A stretch of DNA of 64,000 nucleotides from the NCBI GenBank assembly GCA_017415485.1, contig JAFQGP010000115.1, forward strand, positions 8,135 to 72,134, read 5' to 3'. The notes under the pieces were generated by a model. The model did not search any database. It was not told the origin of the DNA and saw nothing but the letters and a program-made list of their open reading frames with translations. A program made the position numbers and the translations under genes. Below, in pieces: positions 3,480-57,057 of the stretch. The DNA is from Clostridia bacterium. GTDB lineage: Bacteria > Bacillota > Clostridia > Oscillospirales > CAG-272. Numbering within the stretch: position 1 is the stretch's first letter; every line of letters begins with the position of its first letter.

Positions 3480-3611
3480 CGATCTTTGTTGCAATGAAAT
3501 CCGCCTTCGGCGGGTGAAATCGCGCGTTGCGCGATGAAATCGAGCTTCGCTCGGTGAAATCTTCGCCTTTGGCGAAGGTTTCGGAAGATTTTCTCGCGGG
3601 GCTCGAAAATC
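3465..3611. repeat. Hairpin-train element H1: 12-bp hairpin over the stop codon plus 4-5 GC hairpins separated by the word [AG]TGAAAT
   Basis: GCAACAAAGATC-TGAC-GATCTTTGTTGC, with the TGA stop in the loop. It is followed by aATGAAAT-ccgccttcggcgg, GTGAAAT-cgcgcgttgcgcg, ATGAAAT-cgagcttcgctcg and GTGAAAT-cttcgcctttggcgaag. Confidence 0.85.
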
Positions 3612-6699: not shown

Positions 6700-8097
6700 A
6701 TGAAGAAATTTTTAGCACTTGCAATCACCGCTGCTATGCTTCTTTCCTTCGCAGTAATCGGTACATCCGCTGCAGAAGTATATGACGGCACAAGCGTATC
6801 CGCTTCCCTTTCCGGCGCGGGAACAGAGGCTGATCCCTATCTTATCGCAAACGGCGCAGACCTTGCATTCTTTGCTGCAAACGCAGTAGCAGGCGCTTCC
6901 TACAAGCTCACCGCTGACATCGTCTGGGCTTCCGCTGCCGAGGCAACCAACTGGACTCCCGTTGAATTCAACGGCACCTTCGACGGAAACGGTCACTCGA
7001 TCTCCGGCCTCTGCGTCAAGGGCGAAAAGAATGCTGCATTCTTCGCAACCGCAGCCGGTGCCATCAAGAACCTTACCATTAAGGATTCCACATTTGAGGG
7101 ATCGAAGTACATCGCCGCTATTGTCGGTCAGGTAGTAGCTGCAGACGCAAAGGAATCCGCTCCTTCTCTCACGATCGAGAACTGTGTAAGCTACGCTACC
7201 CTCATCTCGACCAAGAACAGCTCACTCATCGGCTCTATGATCGGCGACGCTTTCGCTAACGCGAAGACCCCCAACTATCTCACAGTTACAGTTTCGGGTT
7301 GTGTTAACTACGGCACCATCAGCTCCACCACGGACGGCACCGTTTACGTTGGCGGTATCATCGGCCGTACCTACGGTATTCCCGCAATTGTTGAAAACTG
7401 CGCGAACTTCGGCGATCTCAACTCCATTTCCGCTATCACCGGCGGTATCGTCGGCCAGGGCGGTATCAGCGGCGATACCTACGAAGGCTTCTCTACCAAG
7501 ATCAGCAACTGCCTTAACACCGGCAACGCGACCGGCAAGCGTATCTGCGGCGGTATCATCGGCCGTGCATACCCCGGCGTATACGTTGACGGATGTGTAA
7601 ACACCGGCAGCATGACCATCACCGCTACCGATGCGGCTAAGGACGGCTACAACGATCAGCTCGGCCCCATCACCGGCCACGGCCCCGATGCAAGAGCAGA
7701 TGCAGCTACCTTCGTCAACTGCGGTGAGATCACAAACTGCTACAACTCCGCAGAAGCAGTTTTCACCAACTCGAACGATGCAGCAGCCAAGCCCTTCTAC
7801 GCTTCTCTTGCAACCAATAAAACCGCTGCAGAGCTTAACAGCGCCGCTACCGTTACCGCTCTCGGCGACGCTTGGGAGCTCAAGGACGGCGTTCTTACTC
7901 TCAAGATCGTTGCTACCGCAGGCCAGGTTGAATCCGCACAGCCCGAGGTAACAGAACCTGAGGTTACCGAGCCCGCTCCCGAAGACACCAAGCCCGCGGA
8001 TCCCGTTCCCACCGGCGACTCCGCTCTCGTTTTCGCAGTGATCGCAATCATCTCCGTCCTCGGAGTTGCTGCTGTTGCAAAGAGAAGAGAGAATTAA
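6700..8097 (+). CDS. Secreted GLUG-like beta-helix repeat surface protein with a C-terminal PTGDSAL/TM/KRREN sorting signal
   Basis: Signal peptide MKKFLALAITAAMLLSFAVIGTSAAE. Repeats of CxNxG...GGIIG/GGIVG. Ends DPVPTGDSALVFAVIAIISVLGVAAVAKRREN. Confidence 0.85.
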   Translation: MKKFLALAITAAMLLSFAVIGTSAAEVYDGTSVSASLSGAGTEADPYLIANGADLAFFAANAVAGASYKLTADIVWASAAEATNWTPVEFNGTFDGNGHSISGLCVKGEKNAAFFATAAGAIKNLTIKDSTFEGSKYIAAIVGQVVAADAKESAPSLTIENCVSYATLISTKNSSLIGSMIGDAFANAKTPNYLTVTVSGCVNYGTISSTTDGTVYVGGIIGRTYGIPAIVENCANFGDLNSISAITGGIVGQGGISGDTYEGFSTKISNCLNTGNATGKRICGGIIGRAYPGVYVDGCVNTGSMTITATDAAKDGYNDQLGPITGHGPDARADAATFVNCGEITNCYNSAEAVFTNSNDAAAKPFYASLATNKTAAELNSAATVTALGDAWELKDGVLTLKIVATAGQVESAQPEVTEPEVTEPAPEDTKPADPVPTGDSALVFAVIAIISVLGVAAVAKRREN

Positions 8098-8329
8098 GTG
8101 GACAGTGGTTAGTGGACAGTGGACAGAAAGATGCGAATGATAATTTAATTTGTATATTTGCTATCCATTGTACTAACTAATAATTTAATAGAAAAAACTC
8201 GGATATTATGACGCGTTTGCATCAAAATATCCGAGTTTTTCTATCGCTTATCCAAACGAAGTTAACAGTGCACAAAACAAAATTACTTGTCGCAACTTTC
8301 TGTTCACTGTCCACTAACCACTGTTCCCT
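8098..8329. repeat. Palindromic intergenic element E1 (GTGGACA-heptamer arms, AT-rich core with a bidirectional terminator)
   Basis: The left arm GTGGACAGTGGTTAGTGGACAGTGGACAGAAAG (8098-8130) is the reverse complement of 8296-8328 with 2-3 mismatches. The element fills essentially the whole gap between two converging stop codons (8097 and 8332). Confidence 0.9.
8192..8241. terminator. Bidirectional rho-independent terminator inside E1
   Basis: AAAAACTCGGATATT ... AATATCCGAGTTTTT, with an A-tract and a T-tract on the two sides. Confidence 0.75.
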
Positions 8330-10614: not shown

Positions 10615-10657
10615 TTTGCTTTCCTTATTGTATACAAGAAGAATATTTTTCCAAAAA

Positions 10658-11016
10658 GCAAGTGCGAACAAAGCTTTCTGGGTGTCCCCTCATCACCCGC
10701 TGCGGCGGGAGCTTCTCCCAGGAGAAGCCTGGGGAACTGTGAGCTTCGTTTGATATTTCCAATTATTCATTTTTCATTATTCATTTGACCAATTTAGGTT
10801 TATAATGAATAATGAATAATTATTAATTGGCAAGAACACTTTTCTATACAATCGAAACCCAAGTAATATTAATTAACAAATTACATTCATTACTAATAAC
10901 GATAAGCTTCATTTAGATAATTCCAAATGAAGCTAACAGTGACCCCAAGGCTTCTCCTGGGAGAAGCTCCCGCCGCAGCGGGTGATGAGGGGACACCCAG
11001 AAGAATGTGTTAGCAC
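10658..11016. repeat. Long palindromic intergenic element E2 (arms about 95 bp, AT-rich core with a TTATTCA-word inner palindrome)
   Basis: The left arm GCAAGTGCGAACAAAGCTTTCTGGGTGTCCCCTCATCACCCGCTGCGGCGGGAGCTTCTCCCAGGAGAAGCC... recurs as its reverse complement at 10924-11016. The same arm family occurs at 32029 and 34919. Confidence 0.9.
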
Positions 11017-21987: not shown

Positions 21988-22081
21988 TTTTAATCTCTCA
22001 TTAAGTATAATTAGCCTATTATATATATTATATAATAAAACCGCGAAAAAAGCAATATTTATTTTGAGAAAGGAGCAAATT

Positions 22082-22954
22082 TTGAGTAAATTTTCTTTGT
22101 TTTTCGGTGCAGCGACGGCGCTCGTCACGCCGTTTGAGCAAAACGGCGCACTCGACCTCGATTCTTACCGAAAGCTCTTGCGTTTTCAGCTCGACGAGGG
22201 CATCGACGCGCTTCTCGTCTGCGGCACGACGGGAGAGACCCCGACCCTGTCCGACGATGAGTGCCTGACCCTGCTTTGCGAAGCAGTCAAAACGGTGCAA
22301 AAGAGCGTTCCCGTCATAATGGGAGTCGGCTCGAACTGCACCGAACACGCAGTTGAAAAAGCTCGCGCGGCAGAGCAAAACGGTGCCGACGCACTCCTCG
22401 CCGTCACCCCCTATTACAACAAATGTACCCCCTCGGGGCTCGTCCGACACTACCGCGAGATAGCCGCGGCGACCTCCCTGCCCATCATCGTCTACACCGT
22501 CCCCTCGCGCACGGGAATGACGATCCCGCCCTCAGTCTGGGGCGAGCTTTTCGCCATTCCGAACATAATCGGCATCAAGGATGCGACCGGTGACATCGCC
22601 TACGGAGCGCAATTTTTGTCTTATTTCGGGGAAGAATCCTGCCTCTGGTCAGGCAACGACAACGCCACTTTACCCCTGCTTTCACTCGGTTCCGAGGGGG
22701 TGATTTCGGTGCTTTCAAACGTCAAACCAAGGGAAACGTCCGCCCTCTGCCACACCTACGCCGAGGGCAAAATCCGAGAAGCAAAGGATCTCGCCGCCTC
22801 ACTTTTACCCCTCGCCGATGCCCTGTTCTGCGAGGTAAATCCCATCCCCGTAAAAGCCGCTCTGTCGATGATGGGAATATGTAAACCATATTGCAGACTG
22901 CCGCTGACGACGGCAGCAGAAACAACATTTAATCGATTAAAAAAACTATTATAA
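22082..22954 (+). CDS. dapA: 4-hydroxy-tetrahydrodipicolinate synthase
   Basis: TTG start at 22082, 6 nt after AAGGAG. Motifs TALVTPF, CGTTGE and the catalytic-Lys region IIGIKDATGD. Confidence 0.88.
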   Translation: MSKFSLFFGAATALVTPFEQNGALDLDSYRKLLRFQLDEGIDALLVCGTTGETPTLSDDECLTLLCEAVKTVQKSVPVIMGVGSNCTEHAVEKARAAEQNGADALLAVTPYYNKCTPSGLVRHYREIAAATSLPIIVYTVPSRTGMTIPPSVWGELFAIPNIIGIKDATGDIAYGAQFLSYFGEESCLWSGNDNATLPLLSLGSEGVISVLSNVKPRETSALCHTYAEGKIREAKDLAASLLPLADALFCEVNPIPVKAALSMMGICKPYCRLPLTTAAETTFNRLKKLL

Positions 22955-29321: not shown

Positions 29322-29412
29322 ATCAACCTCGCAAAAAATTTCGTTACACTATAATTATAATCTATTTTGCGACGAAATGTAACCCCTAAAAAGGTGGGAA
29401 ACTGGGAAATTA

Positions 29413-29713
29413 GTGGGCAGATCAGAGTGGACAGTGGACAGATCAGAGTGGACAGTGGACAGTGGACAGTGAACAGAAAGATGCGAATGATATTTTTATT
29501 TATCTTTTCTGTTAATTATTAAACAAATAATTTAATATATAAAACTCTCGGATATCTTGAATTCCTTCAAATATCCGAGAGTATTTTTTATTGCTTATTA
29601 CTCTTTAGTATAATACAAAAACTCTATGTTTTGCACAAAATTATTGCAGCAACCCGCATCTTTCTGTCCACTGTCCACTAACCACTGTCCACTCTTATCT
29701 GACCACTGTCCAC
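29413..29713. repeat. Palindromic intergenic element E3 (GTGGACA-heptamer arms, same family as E1)
   Basis: The left arm has (GTGGACA)n interspersed with GATCAGA and ends CAGAAAGATGCGAATGA as in E1. The right arm CTTTCTGTCCACTGTCCACTAACCACTGTCCAC is the exact reverse complement of the E1 left arm. Confidence 0.9.
29541..29589. terminator. Terminator hairpin in the E3 core
   Basis: ACTCTCGGATAT ... ATATCCGAGAGT followed by TTTTTT. It is homologous in position and sequence to the E1 core hairpin, with a TC/GA insertion pair in the stem. Confidence 0.7.
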
Positions 29714-29718
29714 TTTGC

Positions 29719-31984: not shown

Positions 31985-32028
31985 TTTATGTTCCTTTCTT
32001 TTGAGAAAAGTGTATTTTCTATAAAATC

Positions 32029-32423
32029 AGTGCGAACATAGACGCACTCGGTGTCCCCTCATCACCCGCTACGTCAGAACCCCAAAAACGCGCAAGCGCG
32101 TTTCCGGGAACCCGACGGCTGGAGCTTCTCCCAGGAGAAGCCTAAGGAAAGCTGTCGCTTTGAGCTAAATATTTCTCTGTTAGAGAAATGCTAAATTTTC
32201 GCTATGCAAAAGCTAAATACGCGCTTTGCGCGAGCTAAATATTCCGCCAAAGCGGAATGCAAAGGTAGAAATTTGCCAAGGCAAATTTCAATTTCATTTA
32301 ATTAATGATACGAATATTAGACAATACCAAACGAAGCTCACAGTAACCCCAGGCTTCTCCTGGAAGAAGCTCCCTCCGCAGAGGGTGATGAGGGGACACC
32401 CAGAAAGCTTTGTTCGCACTTGC
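32029..32423. repeat. Long palindromic intergenic element E4 (E2 arm family) with a central GCTAAAT hairpin train
   Basis: The arms GGTGTCCCCTCATCACCCGC...GGAGCTTCTCCCAGGAGAAGCC pair with their reverse complement at 32345-32423. The core at 32162-32292 has 5 hairpins separated by GCTAAAT. It is about 90% identical to E6. Confidence 0.9.
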
Positions 32424-34899: not shown

Positions 34900-34918
34900 T
34901 AATTGACTTTATCATTTA

Positions 34919-35285
34919 GCAAGTGCGAACAAAGCTTTCTGGGTGTCCCCTCATCACCCGCTACGTCAGAACCCCAAAAACGCGCAAGCGCGTTTCCGGG
35001 AACCCGACGGCGGGAGCTTCTCCCAGGAGAAGCCTAGGGAGTCTAACGCCTTGAGCTAAATATTTCTCTCTTAGAGAAATGCTAAATTTTTGCTATGCAA
35101 AAGCTAAATTCGCGCTTTGCGCGAGCTAAATATTCCGCTAAAGCGGAATGCAAAGGTAGAAATTTGCCAATGCAAATTTCAATTTAATAAATAATTCGAA
35201 GATTCGAGAATTCCAAACGAAGCTCACAGTAACCCCAGGCTTCTCCTGGGAGAAGCTCCCGCCGCAGCGGGTGATGAGGGGACAC
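34919..35285. repeat. Long palindromic intergenic element E6 (near-copy of E4, same orientation)
   Basis: Same arms as E4, and the same GCTAAAT hairpin train at 35053-35183. Confidence 0.9.
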
Positions 35286-35352
35286 CGTTTGTGCCCAATG
35301 AACACAAGTGAATATTCACTTTAACGATAAAAATTAATCAAGGAGTCCCAAA

Positions 35353-38532: not shown

Positions 38533-38844
38533 AATGCAAAATGTAGGTGAATTTTCTCGCTTCGCTCAAAAATTTTCATTTGAATACAAGCAGCTTAAAG
38601 TTTTGATCGAACTTTTTCAAAAGTTCGCAGAGCTCGAGACAGCGTCTCGATTCAATGCAAAAGCTTCAGCTTTTGCCTCCGTGCTTCAAAATGGCGAAGC
38701 TTCGCTTCGACATTTTGGACAGAGTCAATACTTCCCGATTGTAGGGAAGTGCAGCTCTTGCGGTTTTCCGAAGGAAAATGGAGGCGTAAGCCGAGAAGCA
38801 AGAGTTGCAACTTGCCGTAGGCAAGTATTTGCGCTCTGTCACCC
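38521..38844. repeat. Structured repeat H2 (left module, copy A)
   Basis: It begins with (C/T)AAAATG x3 across the murQ stop. Positions 38549-38844 are homologous to 42879-43101, and the module ends GCGCTCTGTCACCC. It carries extra hairpins inserted at 38755-38830. Confidence 0.85.
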
Positions 38845-38904: not shown

Positions 38905-39114
38905 ATGAAAAAGAACCTTATCTGGAACATTATCTTAATAATCGGCATCATCCCTTTCATACTTCCGTTCGCTTTCGGCATATACAAAATTTCGATCGAA
39001 AGCTGGACGATGTTCGATTGGCTCGTTATGTACTCGTACATTTTTTGGCCCACTTATATCGTCGGCGCGGTAGTTATCGCGATTTCGATCATTGGAAGAT
39101 TCATAAAAAAGTGA
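38905..39114 (+). CDS. Small hydrophobic membrane protein (69 aa), the AT-rich cargo of element copy A
   Basis: MKKNLIWNIILIIGIIPFILPFAF..., with 2-3 TM segments. AT-rich codon usage unlike its neighbours. The stop lies inside the first hairpin of H3. Confidence 0.5.
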   Translation: MKKNLIWNIILIIGIIPFILPFAFGIYKISIESWTMFDWLVMYSYIFWPTYIVGAVVIAISIIGRFIKK

Positions 39115-39275
39115 AGGAGCAAAACCTCCCCGCGGGGAGGTTTTACTCCTTCCAAACAGCCTGCGGGGCGCAGTCTGTTTGAAGCGCAAGGGAATTTCGC
39201 CCTCTGCGGAGGGCGACTTAAGGCTCTGCCTTAAGAAACCGCAACCTTTTGAAAAAGGTTGACCAAAACTTTGAT
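39111..39275. repeat. Structured repeat H3 (right module, copy A)
   Basis: GTGAAGGAGCAAAACCTCCCCGCGGGGAGGTTTTACTCCTTC... contains five hairpins and is homologous to 44837-45001 with compensatory stem changes. Confidence 0.9.
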
Positions 39276-40879: not shown

Positions 40880-40880
40880 G

Positions 40881-41090
40881 CGATATAGATCCTTGCGGAT
40901 CTGTGATATACGCAGAGCGTGCGATATACCTTCGGCACGATATGCCCCTTCGGGGCGTGATTTCACGTTCGCCTTCGGCGAACATATCGTATCGCGCTTT
41001 GCACGATATATCGTACTGTTTGCCAAAGGCAAACAGTATATCGTATGAGCATAGCGAATATATCGTGTTTACTAAATAAACGAGGTTAAC
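40881..41090. repeat. Hairpin-train element H4 (word CGATAT / ATATCG, overall palindromic)
   Basis: About 9 GC hairpins (gatccttgcggatc, gccccttcggggc, gttcgccttcggcgaac, actgtttgccaaaggcaaacagt ...). The spacer is (G)CGATAT(A) in the left half and ATATCGT in the right half. The centre is cgtgatttcacg. Confidence 0.85.
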
Positions 41091-41092
41091 CG

Positions 41093-41464
41093 ATGAATAA
41101 TATCACTATACGCGAATTAGCAGTAGAATTGACCGTTGAAATTACGCAAATATGCGATAATATCAAAGGAAGAAGCGTTTTCATAAATCAAATTTTGAGA
41201 TCCTGTTCTTCCATCGGAGCAAATTCCGCAGAAGCCAAATATGCACAAAGTTCCGCAGACTTCATTCACAAATTGGAAATCTCACTCAAAGAATGCTATG
41301 AAACCGATTATTGGCTTGAAATCCTTTATAAAACCAATTCAATGGATAAAGAAACATATATAAGATTGTTAAATAAATGCGGTTCTATTCGCAGAAAGCT
41401 TATTGCCTCCATAACAACGGCAAAAGCAAATTCAGAACAGCAATCCGGAGGTACAACAAAATGA
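41093..41464 (+). CDS. Four-helix-bundle protein (23S rRNA intervening-sequence protein family, PF05635/TIGR02436)
   Basis: 123 aa. Contains ...QILRSCSSIGANSAEAKYAQSSADFIHKLEISLKECYETDYWLEIL. AT-rich. Its stop overlaps the scfB ATG (ATGA). Confidence 0.85.
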   Translation: MNNITIRELAVELTVEITQICDNIKGRSVFINQILRSCSSIGANSAEAKYAQSSADFIHKLEISLKECYETDYWLEILYKTNSMDKETYIRLLNKCGSIRRKLIASITTAKANSEQQSGGTTK

Positions 41465-42843: not shown

Positions 42844-43101
42844 GTTGCTAGTTGCTAGACGCTAGTTGCTAGTTGAAGGTTAATTTCCGCCCTGATCGGG
42901 CGGAAATTTTCATTCTAATTAAAGAGCAGGAAAGTTTTCGTCCACCTTTTTCAAAAGGTGGCGGAGCACGAGGCAGAGCCTCGGACTAATGCGAAAGCTT
43001 CAGCTTTCGCTTCTGCGCTTCAAAATGACGAAGCTCTGCTTCGGCATTTTGGACAGAGTCAACACTTCCCGAATGTAGGGAAGTGTTGCGCTCTGTCACC
43101 C
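42844..43101. repeat. Structured repeat H5 (left module, copy B)
   Basis: It begins with GTTGCTA-type heptamers x5 directly after the scfB stop, continues with sequence homologous to 38549-38844, and ends GCGCTCTGTCACCC. Confidence 0.9.
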
Positions 43102-43121
43102 CTTATTATTTAATATTCAAA

Positions 43122-43164
43122 GGCACACTTTTCGGTAAAAGCCGATTGGTGTGCCAACTTTTTT
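43122..43164 (+). terminator. Rho-independent terminator (plus-strand T-tail)
   Basis: GGCACAC...GTGTGCC followed by TTTTTT. Confidence 0.65.
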
Positions 43165-43489
43165 ATTCAAGTGAATTCAGATATACTTCAAGCAGTTGCT
43201 TAGCAGTTTCGCGATTCTTCTCAGGGAGTAAATCAACTCGTTCGGCAAGTGTTGCGCCGATTGGCACAATTATCTGATCTTCAACAAAAATATCGTTCGG
43301 AGTAATGCCCAACGCCTCGCATATTCTAAGCACACTCTCGATGCGCATATTAACGCTTCCTCTTTCGATATCAGCGTAAGTGCGATCAGAAAGTCCCGCC
43401 TCCTCCGCAACCTGTGCCTGCGTAAGCCCTTTTTGTTTTCTTATGGCATACAATTTATTTCCTATTTCCATCAAATCAAAAACAAGCAT
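43163..43489 (-). CDS. Small XRE-family HTH repressor-like protein
   Basis: 108 aa. HTH is LYAIRKQKGLTQAQVAEEAGLSDRTYADIERG. AT-rich. It is divergent from a consensus promoter. Confidence 0.8.
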   Translation of the reverse strand: MLVFDLMEIGNKLYAIRKQKGLTQAQVAEEAGLSDRTYADIERGSVNMRIESVLRICEALGITPNDIFVEDQIIVPIGATLAERVDLLPEKNRETAKQLLEVYLNSLE

Positions 43490-43537
43490 CTTAATTCCCC
43501 TTTTTATTATATATAGGAATTATAGCACCATTTTATC

Positions 43538-43566
43538 TTGACAAAAAGGAGTTTCAGTGCTATAAT
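43538..43566 (+). promoter_or_regulatory. Perfect consensus sigma-70 promoter with a flanking inverted repeat (candidate operator)
   Basis: TTGACA (43538-43543), N17, TATAAT (43561-43566). The inverted repeat TTATAGCAC (43519-43527) / GTGCTATAA (43556-43564) overlaps the -10 element. Confidence 0.7.
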
Positions 43567-43608
43567 ATAGGAAGTAAGATTCTTATTTGTTTTCAAGGAG
43601 GTATTACA

Positions 43609-43803
43609 ATGAAAAAATATGTTCTTAATGAATCTACAGGTACGCTACACATTCTCGGTTATTGTACACATTCGACACATAAGTTTGACAATGCAATTAC
43701 ATTCGAAACAGAACAAGAAGCATACAAATTTGCTGGCAAGCATATTAAGCTTTGCAAGCTATGTGAAAGAAAAAAAGAAGCAATCTTAAAAGAACAAAAC
43801 TAA
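43609..43803 (+). CDS. Small Cys/His-containing protein (64 aa), possible zinc-binding
   Basis: AGGAGG RBS. Contains LHILGYCTHSTH ... CKLCERKK. AT-rich. I recognise no family. Confidence 0.5.
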   Translation: MKKYVLNESTGTLHILGYCTHSTHKFDNAITFETEQEAYKFAGKHIKLCKLCERKKEAILKEQN

Positions 43804-43831
43804 TTATGCATTAAAGAAAGGAATATAATCC

Positions 43832-44563
43832 ATGAAAAAATTTATTGCAATATTATTAGCGGTAATTATGTGTTTTTCCCTAGTTTCATGCGGAAAGAAA
43901 GTGGCTTTTGAATTAACACAAAATGCATTTTTTGAGATAAGCAAGTCTGTAGATATTTTGAAGCAGATCAGCAATGACATTATTAGCGCGTGGACGATAG
44001 GTATTTATGATGAATCAACATTAAAACACTATGGTGATGGATTTGATTGGTTATGTGAAAACGTTTCATTATCAAGAGATGATATGCTTGATGGATTAGC
44101 ATATTATAAAAGTCTTGGTATTCAACCCGAATACGTAGAAATTTTATGTGATCCGGAATTAGGATTATATAATGATTATTATGAATACCATAAAGAAGCA
44201 GTACGAAAACTTTATGATATGTATTTCTATACCAGTTATGAGGAAACAGGTATATTAAATGTTTACGATAAAGTGTTCACAGGTTGTGTAATGTTGGTCG
44301 TATACTCTTACGAGGCGAACGGAAAGCTCAGCGAAATCGAACAATCTCTTACATCCGCTGAAACAAAAATCAAAGAATTGAGCAATAAGCATTCAAACTA
44401 TGAGCATTACGAAAACATAAAAGAATATTATTCTACTGCTAGGACTATGTATAATTTCTGCAAATTGCCCACTGGAACATTAGAGCAAGCTAAGAGCAAC
44501 ATAAACGATTATAAAAACACAGCAGATTCGTGTTATAACAGTATGTATTACTTTTTCCAGTAG
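43832..44563 (+). CDS. Lipoprotein of unknown function (243 aa)
   Basis: Lipobox FSLVSCG. AT-rich, helical, Tyr/Glu-rich. Confidence 0.6.
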   Translation: MKKFIAILLAVIMCFSLVSCGKKVAFELTQNAFFEISKSVDILKQISNDIISAWTIGIYDESTLKHYGDGFDWLCENVSLSRDDMLDGLAYYKSLGIQPEYVEILCDPELGLYNDYYEYHKEAVRKLYDMYFYTSYEETGILNVYDKVFTGCVMLVVYSYEANGKLSEIEQSLTSAETKIKELSNKHSNYEHYENIKEYYSTARTMYNFCKLPTGTLEQAKSNINDYKNTADSCYNSMYYFFQ

Positions 44564-44599: not shown

Positions 44600-44836
44600 T
44601 GACGATATATCAAGAGCCCTCCCGCTTGCGGGAGGGTTGGGAGGGGAGTCAGCGGCGCGCGAAATTTGAGCACCAAAACCAAACTCAAAGCGAAATATAA
44701 TAAAAATGTGAAAATCCGCCGCGGCGGATTTTTCCTTTACGTTCCGCGGTGCGGAACATATCGCATCGCGAAGCGATATATCGTATCCGCAGGATATATC
44801 GCGCCGAAGGCATATCGTGCGCCCTGCGGGCGCAGG
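44600..44836. repeat. Hairpin-train element H6a (ATATCG word)
   Basis: ccctcccgcttgcgggaggg and aaatccgccgcggcggattt, followed by gttccgcggtgcggaac-ATATCGC-atcgcgaagcgat-ATATCGT-atccgcaggat-ATATCGC-gccgaaggc-ATATCGT-gcgccctgcgggcgc. Confidence 0.85.
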
Positions 44837-45001
44837 GTGAAGGAGCAAAAATCTCCCGCAAGGGGAGATTTTACTCCTTCCGAACCGTCGACGGGGCGTC
44901 GCCGGTTCGAAGCACAAGGAAATTTCGCGCTCTGCGGAGCGCGACTTAAGGCTCTGCCTTAAGAAACCGCAAACTTTTGAAAAAGTTTGATCAAAACTTT
45001 T
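44837..45001. repeat. Structured repeat H6b (right module, copy B)
   Basis: Collinear with 39111-39275. Linkers are identical (TTACTCCTTCC, CTTAAGGCTCTGCCTTAAGAAACCGCAA) and the stems differ by paired substitutions. Confidence 0.9.
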
Positions 45002-55341: not shown

Positions 55342-57057
55342 TCAGTTCGTCTTCTCTCCGTAAACGAGGATCTCGCGGGTATTGATGGTGTTGTATTTGT
55401 TTTCTTCGTCATTTCTGCCGACAATGACGCCAACACGGATATACTGTCCCTCGACACCGCCCATATCAAACAGGCAGGTGACCTTCGAGGTATTGCCGTT
55501 CCAGGGGTCCTTCGGCGAGGTTCCGCAGTTGACAAGATCGGTTCCTGTCACCTGATTCCAGCAAGCCGTAGGCACCTGGGTCCAATTCACTCCGTCATCG
55601 CTGACATAGACAGCAGCAACTCCGGGGAATCCCTCAAGGCTTCCCGAAGCGAATCCCATTGCATCAAACTTGTGCTTCGAGCCGAAATTGAGGGTGATAA
55701 GGCAGGTATAGGGAGAATTTGCATCGACCTCGCCCTTGATGTTATAGGTCTTATCGTCAAAGACGAAGTTTGCCATAAAGGAGTTGCCCCAGTGGCCGTT
55801 GACAAGGTTTTCGACAGCTGTGGTGTAGCCCTTTGCGGAGGAATCCATTTTTTCGATACCTATTACCGAAACACCGTAGCCGATATCGGCAATGTCAGCC
55901 TTCTGCGCGTCGGTAAGTCCCGTGGTCGAATACTCGGTCGATGCGATCGCATTCTTGGTGCCGAGAATACCCGAGAAGCTCTTGCCGTTCGGGTATGTTC
56001 CGCCCTCGAGGACGGAGATGAGCTTCGACTTCGGGAAAGCGGTCAGGTTCTTCATAGCCGAAGCATCGACCGCATAGGTCTTCTCAACGAATTCAACGCC
56101 GACAGACGAGGTCTTGTACTTTTCGGGGATCGCGGGAGTCTCCCAAACAGCCTTGCGAGCCGCTTCTTTGAGAACAGCCGCCGCTTCATCGGTAAGATTT
56201 GCATTGTAATCGACCGTGGTGGGATCGATACCCGTGATCTTTGCAAAGATCGTCATCGCCGCGAGATAGCTTCCCGTAGCGTTGGGGTGGGTCAGGTCGG
56301 AATCATAGAGGTTGATGTTCTTGTTATTGTTATAAACGTCAAAGAAAGCAAGACCCGCATATGCAATGTCGATACCGAGCTCGGCGCCGATAGCCTCGTA
56401 TGCCGCGCTGATCATCCAGGTCATACTCTCGTTGGTCCAGCCGTTTTCCTTGAGAACGCTGTGTCCCTCTTTTCTGCCCCAGGTGCCGTAGAGAATGGGG
56501 GTCGCGCCGTCTGCAATCACCTTTGCGGCAAGGTTGCGCACGCCGGTGTAGAACTTATCGGGGTACAGCGCGGGGCAGGTGCTCTGCTCCTGCAGAACGA
56601 TGTAATCGTAATCGCGGAGCTTAAGCGCGGAGTCAACCTTCGCGCCGACCTCGTCGGTCGACTTTGCGGAATCGATCAGATACCATCCGCCCTTGGTGAT
56701 ACGGGTGACGGTGGCATCATAGCCCGCCGCCTTCAGTATCTTCGCAAAGATCTGCTCGGGCATATCGTTATAATGAGTATAGCTGTTTCCGATAAAGAGG
56801 AAATTGTATTTCTTGCTCTTGTCGAGGACCGTGGTTTCGGGCTCGGCGGTGGTCTCGGGAGCGGGCTCGGTCGCCTCGGTCTCGGGAGCGGGCTCGGTCG
56901 CCTCGGTCTCGGGAGCGGCAGTGGTTACTTCAATTTCGGGTGCTTTGGTGGTTTCCTCGGGGGCTGTGGTGACTTCACCTTCGCCCGTGCAGGCAACACC
57001 CGCAAAAAGCATTGAGAAAAGCAAAAGCATTGCGATCAATCTCTTTTTCATTGTCAT
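55342..57057 (-). CDS. Lipoprotein with a DUF4886 (SGNH-like) domain and a C-terminal discoidin-like domain
   Basis: Lipobox FAGVACT. T/E/P-rich linker with the EATEPAPET repeat. FLFIGNSYTHYNDMP is DUF4886-like. Confidence 0.6.
   Translation of the reverse strand: MTMKKRLIAMLLLFSMLFAGVACTGEGEVTTAPEETTKAPEIEVTTAAPETEATEPAPETEATEPAPETTAEPETTVLDKSKKYNFLFIGNSYTHYNDMPEQIFAKILKAAGYDATVTRITKGGWYLIDSAKSTDEVGAKVDSALKLRDYDYIVLQEQSTCPALYPDKFYTGVRNLAAKVIADGATPILYGTWGRKEGHSVLKENGWTNESMTWMISAAYEAIGAELGIDIAYAGLAFFDVYNNNKNINLYDSDLTHPNATGSYLAAMTIFAKITGIDPTTVDYNANLTDEAAAVLKEAARKAVWETPAIPEKYKTSSVGVEFVEKTYAVDASAMKNLTAFPKSKLISVLEGGTYPNGKSFSGILGTKNAIASTEYSTTGLTDAQKADIADIGYGVSVIGIEKMDSSAKGYTTAVENLVNGHWGNSFMANFVFDDKTYNIKGEVDANSPYTCLITLNFGSKHKFDAMGFASGSLEGFPGVAAVYVSDDGVNWTQVPTACWNQVTGTDLVNCGTSPKDPWNGNTSKVTCLFDMGGVEGQYIRVGVIVGRNDEENKYNTINTREILVYGEKTN
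56851..56918. repeat. 27-nt tandem repeat (2.5 copies) encoding the linker of the lipoprotein
   Basis: GGTCTCGGGAGCGGGCTCGGTCGCCTC x2 plus a partial copy; on the minus strand it encodes (EATEPAPET)n. Confidence 0.9.

Follow-up and report, generated by a model that had tools for sequence, protein, structure and literature searches.

What keeps the two arms of a hairpin complementary while the sequence of both arms changes? The question is raised by RA and RB, two copies of a hairpin module of about 165 nt in a 64,000-nucleotide stretch of a Clostridia bacterium genome (assembly GCA_017415485.1, contig JAFQGP010000115.1, positions 8,135 to 72,134), referred to here as the window. An earlier note on this DNA had described two collinear copies with conserved linkers and at least six compensatory stem pairs. 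It attributed these to selection on secondary structure, of RNA or of single-stranded or cruciform DNA, rather than on primary sequence. On balance, and with ample room for doubt, RA and RB appear to be copies of a non-coding, modular, interspersed palindromic repeat that is kept at the DNA level. The class is that of repetitive extragenic palindromes and bacterial interspersed mosaic elements (REP/BIME), miniature inverted-repeat transposable elements (MITEs) and mobile insertion cassettes.

RA and RB were found to be collinear, with 86% identity over 164 nt (blastn). Both were predicted to fold into five hairpins (H1 to H5), at -80.2 and -73.4 kcal/mol, respectively, compared with about -44 for shuffled sequences (z about -8). 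A structure-aware alignment running from GTGAAGG to AAAACTTT contained 19 substitutions. Fourteen of these made up seven fully compensated stem pairs (four in H2, split evenly between its outer and inner stems, and one each in H1, H3 and H5). Two turned a C.T mismatch in H2 into T.C, and three were unpaired, two of them in the linker between H2 and H3 and one in the tail. No stem change was uncompensated. When 19 random substitutions were placed on the RA/RB structure in 1,000,000 simulations the maximum was five compensated pairs, reached once (P<1e-6). The location of the two copies, their collinearity and every stem pair named in the earlier note were confirmed, and its minimum of six compensatory pairs rose to seven with chance excluded.

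A family of hairpin modules with covarying stems

The window contains four modules arranged as two inverted pairs with tails outward (Table 1). The first pair (LA and RA) flanks an open reading frame (ORF) of 69 amino acids (aa) and the second (LB and RB) flanks three ORFs and further hairpins. With filters off, a covariance-model scan of the 64 kb gave no further true module. One candidate, at 22077-22153, scored 17.8 bits within coding sequence and was rejected as a chance match. LA and LB share 80% identity, and over about 145 nt they match reverse-complemented RA and RB at 64-67%. The order H1 to H5 was constant in four-way and eight-way alignments. The same alignments showed common linkers (GGGTGA at the head and TTTGAAGC after H2) and a common end, a hairpin with the core CTTTTGAAAAAG followed by GAnnAAAACTTT. 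L and R modules have in common a 27-nt terminal motif of hairpin plus tail, the full tail being 11 nt long. Modules were found solo or as outward-tailed inverted pairs around tens of bases or accessory genes.

The 27-nt module end, with 22 bases specified, was used as a search pattern against species-representative genomes and matched at least 119 loci. A covariance model, R1, found 132 copies in 100 sources. The last three hairpins (H3 to H5) were present in at least 130 copies across metagenome-assembled genomes (MAGs) of gut Oscillospirales type, so that RA and RB are not the only two members, the case in which the earlier note would have withdrawn its claim. The invariance of CTTTTGAAAAAG...GAnnAAAACTTT among the matches is a product of the search pattern and not evidence of conservation. 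Outside the pattern the H3 loop CTGCGG and the stem ends TTTCGC/GCGA were also conserved. Among the matches listed nearly all carriers were uncultured gut MAGs of Oscillospiraceae, Acutalibacteraceae, Ruminococcus or "Eubacteriales". A cultured bacterium with a copy is Acutalibacter sp. 1XD8-33 (locus L076). Carriers of the last hairpin and 11-nt tail beyond the Clostridia were one Aminicenantes MAG with many copies, and Anaerolineae and Deferrimicrobium MAGs. Most Clostridia copies included H4 and about half included H3 with the CTGCGG loop. In the Aminicenantes copies only H5 and the tail were in common, and the adjoining hairpins were of other types. The complete five-hairpin module was found only in close relatives of the window (loci L035, L144, L145/146 and L147 to L149). 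Copies were mostly intergenic (126 of 143), with several per MAG. Thirty-four of 123 copies lay within 300 nt of a contig end, where 7.2 were expected, as multi-copy repeats break short-read assemblies.

Covariation was measured in two alignments, a MAFFT alignment of 46 H3-H4-H5 cores (A3) and 131 distinct copies aligned to the covariance model (A5). RNAalifold recovered H3 and H5 from A3, with double changes in 11 of 19 pairs. In A3 98.1% of cells were paired, compared with 83% in shuffles and about 48% with slid partners. Double-changed cells numbered 129 against a shuffle mean of 31, and none of 500 shuffles reached the observed values. A5 contained 389 double-changed cells and 18 of its 20 pairs covaried. 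The 5' arm of H5 always complemented the 3' arm (AAG/CTT, CAC/GTG, GAG/CTC, AAA/TTT, CAA/TTG, AAC/GTT and GAC/GTC were seen), and this complementarity is unbiased because the 5' arm lies outside the search pattern. Pairing of the H5 3' arm with the tail, as an alternative hairpin, was rejected because no covariation links tail and stem. The first stem base does correlate with the tail (GATC, GACC, GACG), in a way that looks inherited within subfamilies. With homologues collected and tested in these larger alignments, covariation was strong and far above shuffles, and the objection that compensation is at chance level fails. The contrast drawn earlier between structure and primary sequence held in part. 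Base pairing is kept, but loops, linkers and tail are conserved in sequence as well.

DNA palindrome or one-strand RNA

G-U cells were rare, at 4 of 872 in A3 and about 49 of 2,237 in A5 (0.5-2.2%), without strand asymmetry. The G-T fraction in predicted stems was 4.7% and 6.2% on the two strands compared with 16% in shuffles. Many stem swaps were transversions (GC to CG, AU to CG), which cannot go through a wobble intermediate and so argue against a classical one-strand RNA. The tail side faced the 3' end of a gene 67 times and the start of a gene 43 times. On the head side 50 copies were co-directional with and 45 opposed to the flanking ORFs. Orientation relative to flanking genes is close to random, and within the window co-directional plus-strand genes flank modules of both orientations. 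No conserved promoter or terminator marking a transcription unit was found at the modules. The scarcity of G-U pairs, the independence of orientation and the lack of a transcription unit together argue that the module is not a classical one-strand RNA. They point to hairpins that behave as Watson-Crick palindromes of DNA, or that must fold whichever strand is transcribed. The structure proposed in the earlier note, RNA or single-stranded or cruciform DNA, was thus upheld as regards pairing, while a typical one-strand RNA was not.

A terminator scan called the H1 region of RA on the minus strand only, and in RB the inner H1 stem alone on the plus strand. Calls at H3 and H5 were weak, on the minus strand and different between RA and RB, and H4 was not called. 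Four of the five module hairpins have no T-run, and L-type H1 also has none. Only R-type H1 looks terminator-like. It starts at the stop codon of the 69-aa ORF, which lies within the conserved GTGA at the head of RA. An outward promoter starting from TTGACC in the tail was rejected, as no -10 element is conserved and the real promoters lie further downstream. No Rfam family reached the gathering threshold on any of the four modules, and the best matches under permissive settings were unrelated hairpin families.

A structured RNA selected at the RNA level, such as a multi-hairpin 3' untranslated region, a terminator, an mRNA stabilizer or a Gut-1-like small RNA, is an unlikely reading that nevertheless has several observations on its side. 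Covariation is strong and folding energy very low. The loops UGCG in H3, GCAA in H1 of RB and UUCG in H2 of LA resemble stable RNA tetraloops, and the terminator-like R-type H1 sits at a stop codon. Folding required from either strand, as in bidirectional terminators, would explain the restriction to Watson-Crick pairs. A similarly built hairpin chain in the window is curated in Rfam as an RNA, the Gut-1 motif (RF01706), described from gut Clostridia-like genomes (Weinberg et al. 2010, PMC2864571). Set against this are the lack of an Rfam match for the modules, the near-random gene orientation, the few G-U pairs, the lack of signals for a transcription unit of its own and the four hairpins without a T-run.

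The true Gut-1 copy lies at 3492-3565 and scored 75.6 bits. The locus extends over 3492-3590 as a hairpin chain with (G/A)TGAAAT linkers, with another hairpin running past the end of the model. Like the module, Gut-1 is a hairpin chain in which the complementary stems vary while the linkers are conserved. It differs in that its units repeat one linker, whereas the module has five distinct hairpins in fixed order. The Gut-1 model scored nothing on RA or RB, and gave 24 bits (threshold 50) on the array beside RB. This match, at 44735-44836, is on the minus strand. Similar arrays with UUCG- and GNRA-like loops and GATAT(A)TCG linkers were seen at 40880-41085 and 44735-44836, the former being almost identical in L147, where the neighboring decarboxylase is 97% identical. 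The curated Gut-1 motif and the hairpin-chain repeats may be of the same nature, whether RNA gene or DNA-level repeat.

It had been argued that ordinary decaying repeats do not show compensated stems. This is true, but palindromic interspersed repeats of REP/MITE type do show them. The pattern therefore marks a class of repeat and not a discrete RNA gene, structure-preserving evolution being expected for palindromic repeats. Few G-U pairs together with orientation independence would be a simple way to tell DNA-level palindromic repeats from RNA genes.

In the DNA-level repeat favored here the hairpins would matter when the DNA is single-stranded or extruded. An enzyme encoded at another locus may recognize them and so move or recombine the elements, or mismatches in the extruded hairpin may be repaired against the other arm. 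For the mechanism of spread, we infer that gene conversion would carry new stem sequences from copy to copy. In transcripts the hairpins would probably act secondarily, as terminators or 3'-end protectors in either direction of transcription.

Hairpin turnover, framed gene slots and the search for an enzyme

The paired changes, all read as compensatory in the earlier note, proved to be of two sorts. Point compensation was seen at orthologous sites. H3 has GACCTC/GAGGTC in L120 and GCCCTC/GAGGGC in the window, and the outer stem of H1 has AATGAG/CTCATT in L145 and AAGGAG/CTCCTT in the window. L145 also lacks a T in one arm of H5 and an A in the other. Other changes were whole hairpin alleles. 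In the L147 orthologue of LA, H4 and H3 are identical to the window and H2 is identical bar one loop base. The entire H5 stem and tail, by comparison, are swapped from CGAAC/GTTCG+GATC to CCACC/GGTGG+GACG, the allele of LB. Part of the "compensation" between paralogues therefore comes from the exchange of hairpin alleles whose arms are already complementary. Between RB and its L147 orthologue the differences are limited to loops, a bulge and a linker.

Larger units were also gained and lost. The L120 orthologue lacks H1 and H2, a 72-nt stretch with AAGG at both bounds. In L147 38 extra nt form two TTCG-loop hairpins between H2 and H3. Contigs L145 and L146 are nearly identical except for one 22-nt hairpin unit, which belongs to a neighboring array (L145 1264-1400). 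These arrays have (A/C)TTAACT linkers, and the same type occurs at L149 6900-6990 where an R module was expected. A mini-element of two or three hairpins is nested in H1 of LA and is absent from the L147 orthologue. It was found at three different positions within modules and in both relative orientations, the others being L035 2618-2695 (inside H3) and L149 14773-14851 (between H4 and H5). The window copy has AAGT on both sides, a possible 4-bp duplication. The spacer between the NUDIX and MFS genes holds a member of a second, ~370-bp repeat family in the window (34918-35286) and an R-type module of the first family in L147 and L149. A variant R-type module was seen at L147 1666-1825. In this variant H4 and H5 have merged to give a single longer hairpin (CTTAAGAAACTTTTTGGAAAAAGTTTCTTAAG), and the outer stem of its H2 is a third complementary allele, CAAAACG/CGTTTTG. 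The hairpin elements are dynamic on short time scales.

In models of the Ripley type quasi-palindromes are corrected via template switching or mismatch repair in extruded hairpins. Compensation could on this basis be a functionless by-product of mutation, with self-arm correction and gene conversion between copies acting on neutral spacer junk. This is judged quite unlikely, but much of the above is consistent with it. Intermediates are almost absent (the 4 G-U cells of A3 and a few mismatches against 129 double changes), transversion swaps impossible via a wobble pair are frequent, an entire H5 allele was replaced between relatives with a 97% identical neighboring gene, and whole hairpin units were duplicated or inserted. 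Several unrelated hairpin-array families also coexist and replace each other in the same slots. Self-templated correction fails for the loops, linkers and tail, which are conserved in sequence across many genera, the H5 core and tail even across phyla. The conserved order of five distinct hairpins and the consistently outward tails at island boundaries also stand against it.

Three syntenic loci (L147 to L149) were identified via homologues of the adjacent decarboxylase, at 97%, 88% and 83% identity. The gene order is NUDIX, MFS, GDPD, SIS, slot A, decarboxylase, SCIFF, the 23S rRNA intervening-sequence protein (IVP) in some genomes, radical SAM maturase, slot B and GFO oxidoreductase. The IVP gene (PF05635, E 8.5e-23) lies at 41093-41464 in the window, between the SCIFF peptide gene and the maturase gene. 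It is present in L147 and L148 and not in L149 or L120, an insertion polymorphism inside a conserved gene pair. In the window and in L147 to L149 each slot has a reverse-complement module at its left border and a forward module at its right, so that the tails point outward. Only slot A of L149 departs from this, its right border being another type of hairpin array. The cargo differs between genomes. Slot A holds the 69-aa ORF in the window, Imm26 and the 69-aa ORF in L147, and Imm26 in L149; in L148 it is outside the covered sequence. Slot B holds a helix-turn-helix (HTH) gene, a 64-aa ORF and a 243-aa protein in the window, an HTH gene and a methyltransferase in L147, two HTH genes in L148, and an HTH gene, a leucine-rich repeat protein and a zinc-ribbon protein in L149.

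Table 1. Modules, their parts and the genes they frame. Positions are those of the window.
Feature	Position	Strand	Remarks
LA, L-type module	38597-38844	-	Five-hairpin architecture reverse-complemented; 49 bits
LA tail and H5	38597-38627		
LA H4	38633-38650		
LA H3	38657-38676		
LA H2	38687-38717		
LA H1	38718-38840		
Mini-element	38752-38835	+	About 80 nt; nested in LA H1
Island A cargo	38905-39114	+	69-aa hydrophobic ORF between LA and RA; conserved in L120 and L147
RA, R-type five-hairpin module	39108-39272	+	R1 model 94.2 bits for 39193-39272
RA H1	39113-39152		Nested; inner stem with A/T runs, terminator-like
RA H2	39153-39181		Followed by linker 39182-39196
RA H3	39197-39216		Loop TGCG
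RA H4	39217-39235		Loop CTCTG
RA H5	39242-39261		Core CTTTTGAAAAAG
RA tail	39262-39272		ACCAAAACTTT
LB, L-type module	42931-43102	-	54 bits
LB tail and H5	42931-42961		
LB H3	42991-43010		
LB H2	43021-43051		
LB H1	43052-43097		
Island B cargo	43163-44563		Entirely different genes here in relatives
XRE-type HTH gene, island B	43163-43489	-	
64-aa ORF, island B	43609-43803		
243-aa protein, island B	43832-44563		Lipoprotein-like N-terminus
Conserved right frame of island B	44617-44836	+	Upstream of RB; CCCTCCCGCTTGCGGGAGGG hairpin, bidirectional terminator 44711-44732, ATATCG-linker hairpin array
RB, second R-type module	44834-45000	+	R1 model 93.5 bits; nearly identical in relative L147
RB H1	44839-44880		
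RB H2	44881-44909		
RB H3	44925-44944		
RB H4	44945-44963		
RB H5	44970-44989		
RB tail	44990-45000		

It would be possible for the inverted L+R unit to serve as a landing pad or recombination frame, with cargo entering between the heads or islands exchanged via the modules as homology or as site-specific sites. The L+R unit is empty in L144, at about 370 bp with no cargo between the heads, and filled in the window and in L147. Island B has four cargos in four genomes, always between outward-pointing modules. Homology between the window and L147 at the right of island B begins at about 44614, a breakpoint inside the frame, and the left module is of a different subtype, one border thus differing in module subtype between genomes. 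This reading was nonetheless considered very unlikely. No recombinase was found in or near the islands, solo modules and pairs flanking core genes are common, and the right boundary of island A in L149 is not an R module. Homologous recombination in the flanking core genes would also look alike. Such recombination, after transformation, is held responsible for the exchange of the minimal mobile elements of Neisseria, which resemble the present islands in having fixed slots between conserved genes, strain-variable content and small border repeats.

Several observations weigh against the DNA-level repeat favored here. Pfam searches found no transposase, RAYT or integrase in the scanned ORFs of the window. 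No gene family was enriched near the copies and no transposase was found between or near them. A tblastn search with IS608 TnpA and the E. coli RAYT gave no match in the window and about 150 loci, a search of low power as it covered small parts of each genome. No direct repeat or target-site duplication was found at the tails of seven units, although the tails may not be the true ends, the inverted repeat often extending about 10-27 nt past them. Module positions are unchanged in relatives with 83-97% identity in the neighboring gene, which leaves recent transposition of entire modules without support. The RNA-like tetraloops described above fit an RNA role. Finally, nearly every sizeable intergenic spacer of the lineage bears some hairpin element, and for this reason the bracketing of islands could partly be a by-product. 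The only counter to this is the consistent tails-outward orientation, in about seven independent cases by our own count.

Other identities were tried and rejected. Insertion-sequence ends did not fit, as the genes between paired copies are ordinary ones (a GH10 xylanase, an aminotransferase, an ABC transporter) and no gene family is enriched. A plasmid or phage origin was rejected as no BLAST match was obtained in plasmid or phage collections. The pattern had nine matches in IMG/VR. That in L136, which belongs to a set of five syntenic contigs, was set aside as a chance match since the motif falls within an ORF and has no complementary stem. Protein coding was rejected since copy lengths differ by non-multiples of three and the longest reverse frame of the R-type contains an in-frame stop. 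No Pfam or NCBIfam family was found for translations of the modules, and the only two database proteins that match a module reverse frame are themselves further copies of the repeat. An integron attC site was rejected, since the module consists of five hairpins and not one, direct reading of its ends shows no GTTRRRY core and no integrase was found in the scanned ORFs.

A bolder form of the mobile interpretation takes the modules as the ends of cross-phylum non-autonomous cassettes, the L+R unit being a carrier or landing pad whose H5 core and tail would be recognized, as a single-stranded hairpin, by an enzyme encoded elsewhere, for example of HUH type. This is improbable as matters stand. 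If true it would explain the covariation limited to Watson-Crick pairs, the conserved loops and tail, the insertions of the mini-element into modules and the framed variable islands. The bracketing of slots and the occurrence of the 27-nt hairpin-plus-tail motif in four phyla hint at a recognition or mobilization system.

Related repeat systems and other repeats of the window

The repeat family has many copies, which are intergenic and take either orientation relative to genes, and its hairpin units and mini-element are gained, lost and swapped among close relatives. No description of it was found in the full-text literature, an absence which is not proof that none exists. In our judgment the repeat family is new and the kind of repeat is already known.

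REP/BIME and REPIN-RAYT systems consist of a 20-40-nt palindrome in alternating orientation with a GTAG-type 5' motif and a RAYT, a Y1 HUH transposase. They form lineage-specific families and have known side effects on transcript ends. The modules resemble REP/BIME in being mostly extragenic, in having several copies per MAG (four in the 64 kb of the window), in keeping pairing while stems vary, in their mosaic of hairpins and linkers and in lying in either gene orientation. They differ in being an ordered chain of five different hairpins over about 165 nt and not one repeated palindrome. No GTAG-type 5' motif or RAYT gene was found here, and the last hairpin and tail are common across phyla.

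MITEs with structured arms include Correia/NEMIS of Neisseria, bcr1 of Bacillus cereus and BOX/RUP of pneumococci. The L/R modules likewise place terminal inverted repeats, with the 27-nt terminal motif in common, on a short non-coding unit. The outward-tailed pairs are compact (286-555 bp), with long terminal inverted repeats, no coding capacity and stable predicted folds. Their build is modular, as in BOX A-B-C, and assemblies break at the copies. Unlike in MITEs, neither a target-site duplication nor a parent insertion sequence with the same ends was found. Identity between the inverted arms is only about 65%, each arm is a chain of palindromes in its own right, and solo arms are common.

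Mobile insertion cassettes such as MIC231 of the Bacillus cereus group have IS231 ends and a transposase supplied in trans. Islands A and B are similar in having inverted-repeat ends around passenger genes without a transposase. They differ in that no partner transposase is known for them and that the framed slots are fixed in position across related genomes.

If the DNA-level repeat is the right reading, fast-evolving hairpin-chain repeats would make up much of the intergenic DNA in uncultured gut bacteria of Oscillospirales type. These would break short-read assemblies, create spurious ORFs, as long open frames span modules, and mimic structured RNAs in covariation screens.

Other repeats were seen in the window. 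The second family, of about 370 bp, has three copies, with the one in the NUDIX-MFS spacer joined by others at 10657-10997 and 32026-32400. An outer inverted repeat (GGTGTCCCCTCATCACCCGC... / ...GCGGGTGATGAGGGGACACC) surrounds a hairpin chain with GCTAAAT linkers. A third family, at 8091-8329 and 29406-29714, has tandem GTGGACAG octamers with the reverse complement about 200 bp away and an AT-rich core with a hairpin. At 34-722 and 7174-7538 there are short direct repeats at intervals of 99-123 nt, apparently in coding sequence and possibly encoding repeat proteins. A perfect 27-nt tandem repeat was present at 56851-56904 (region 56851-56931).

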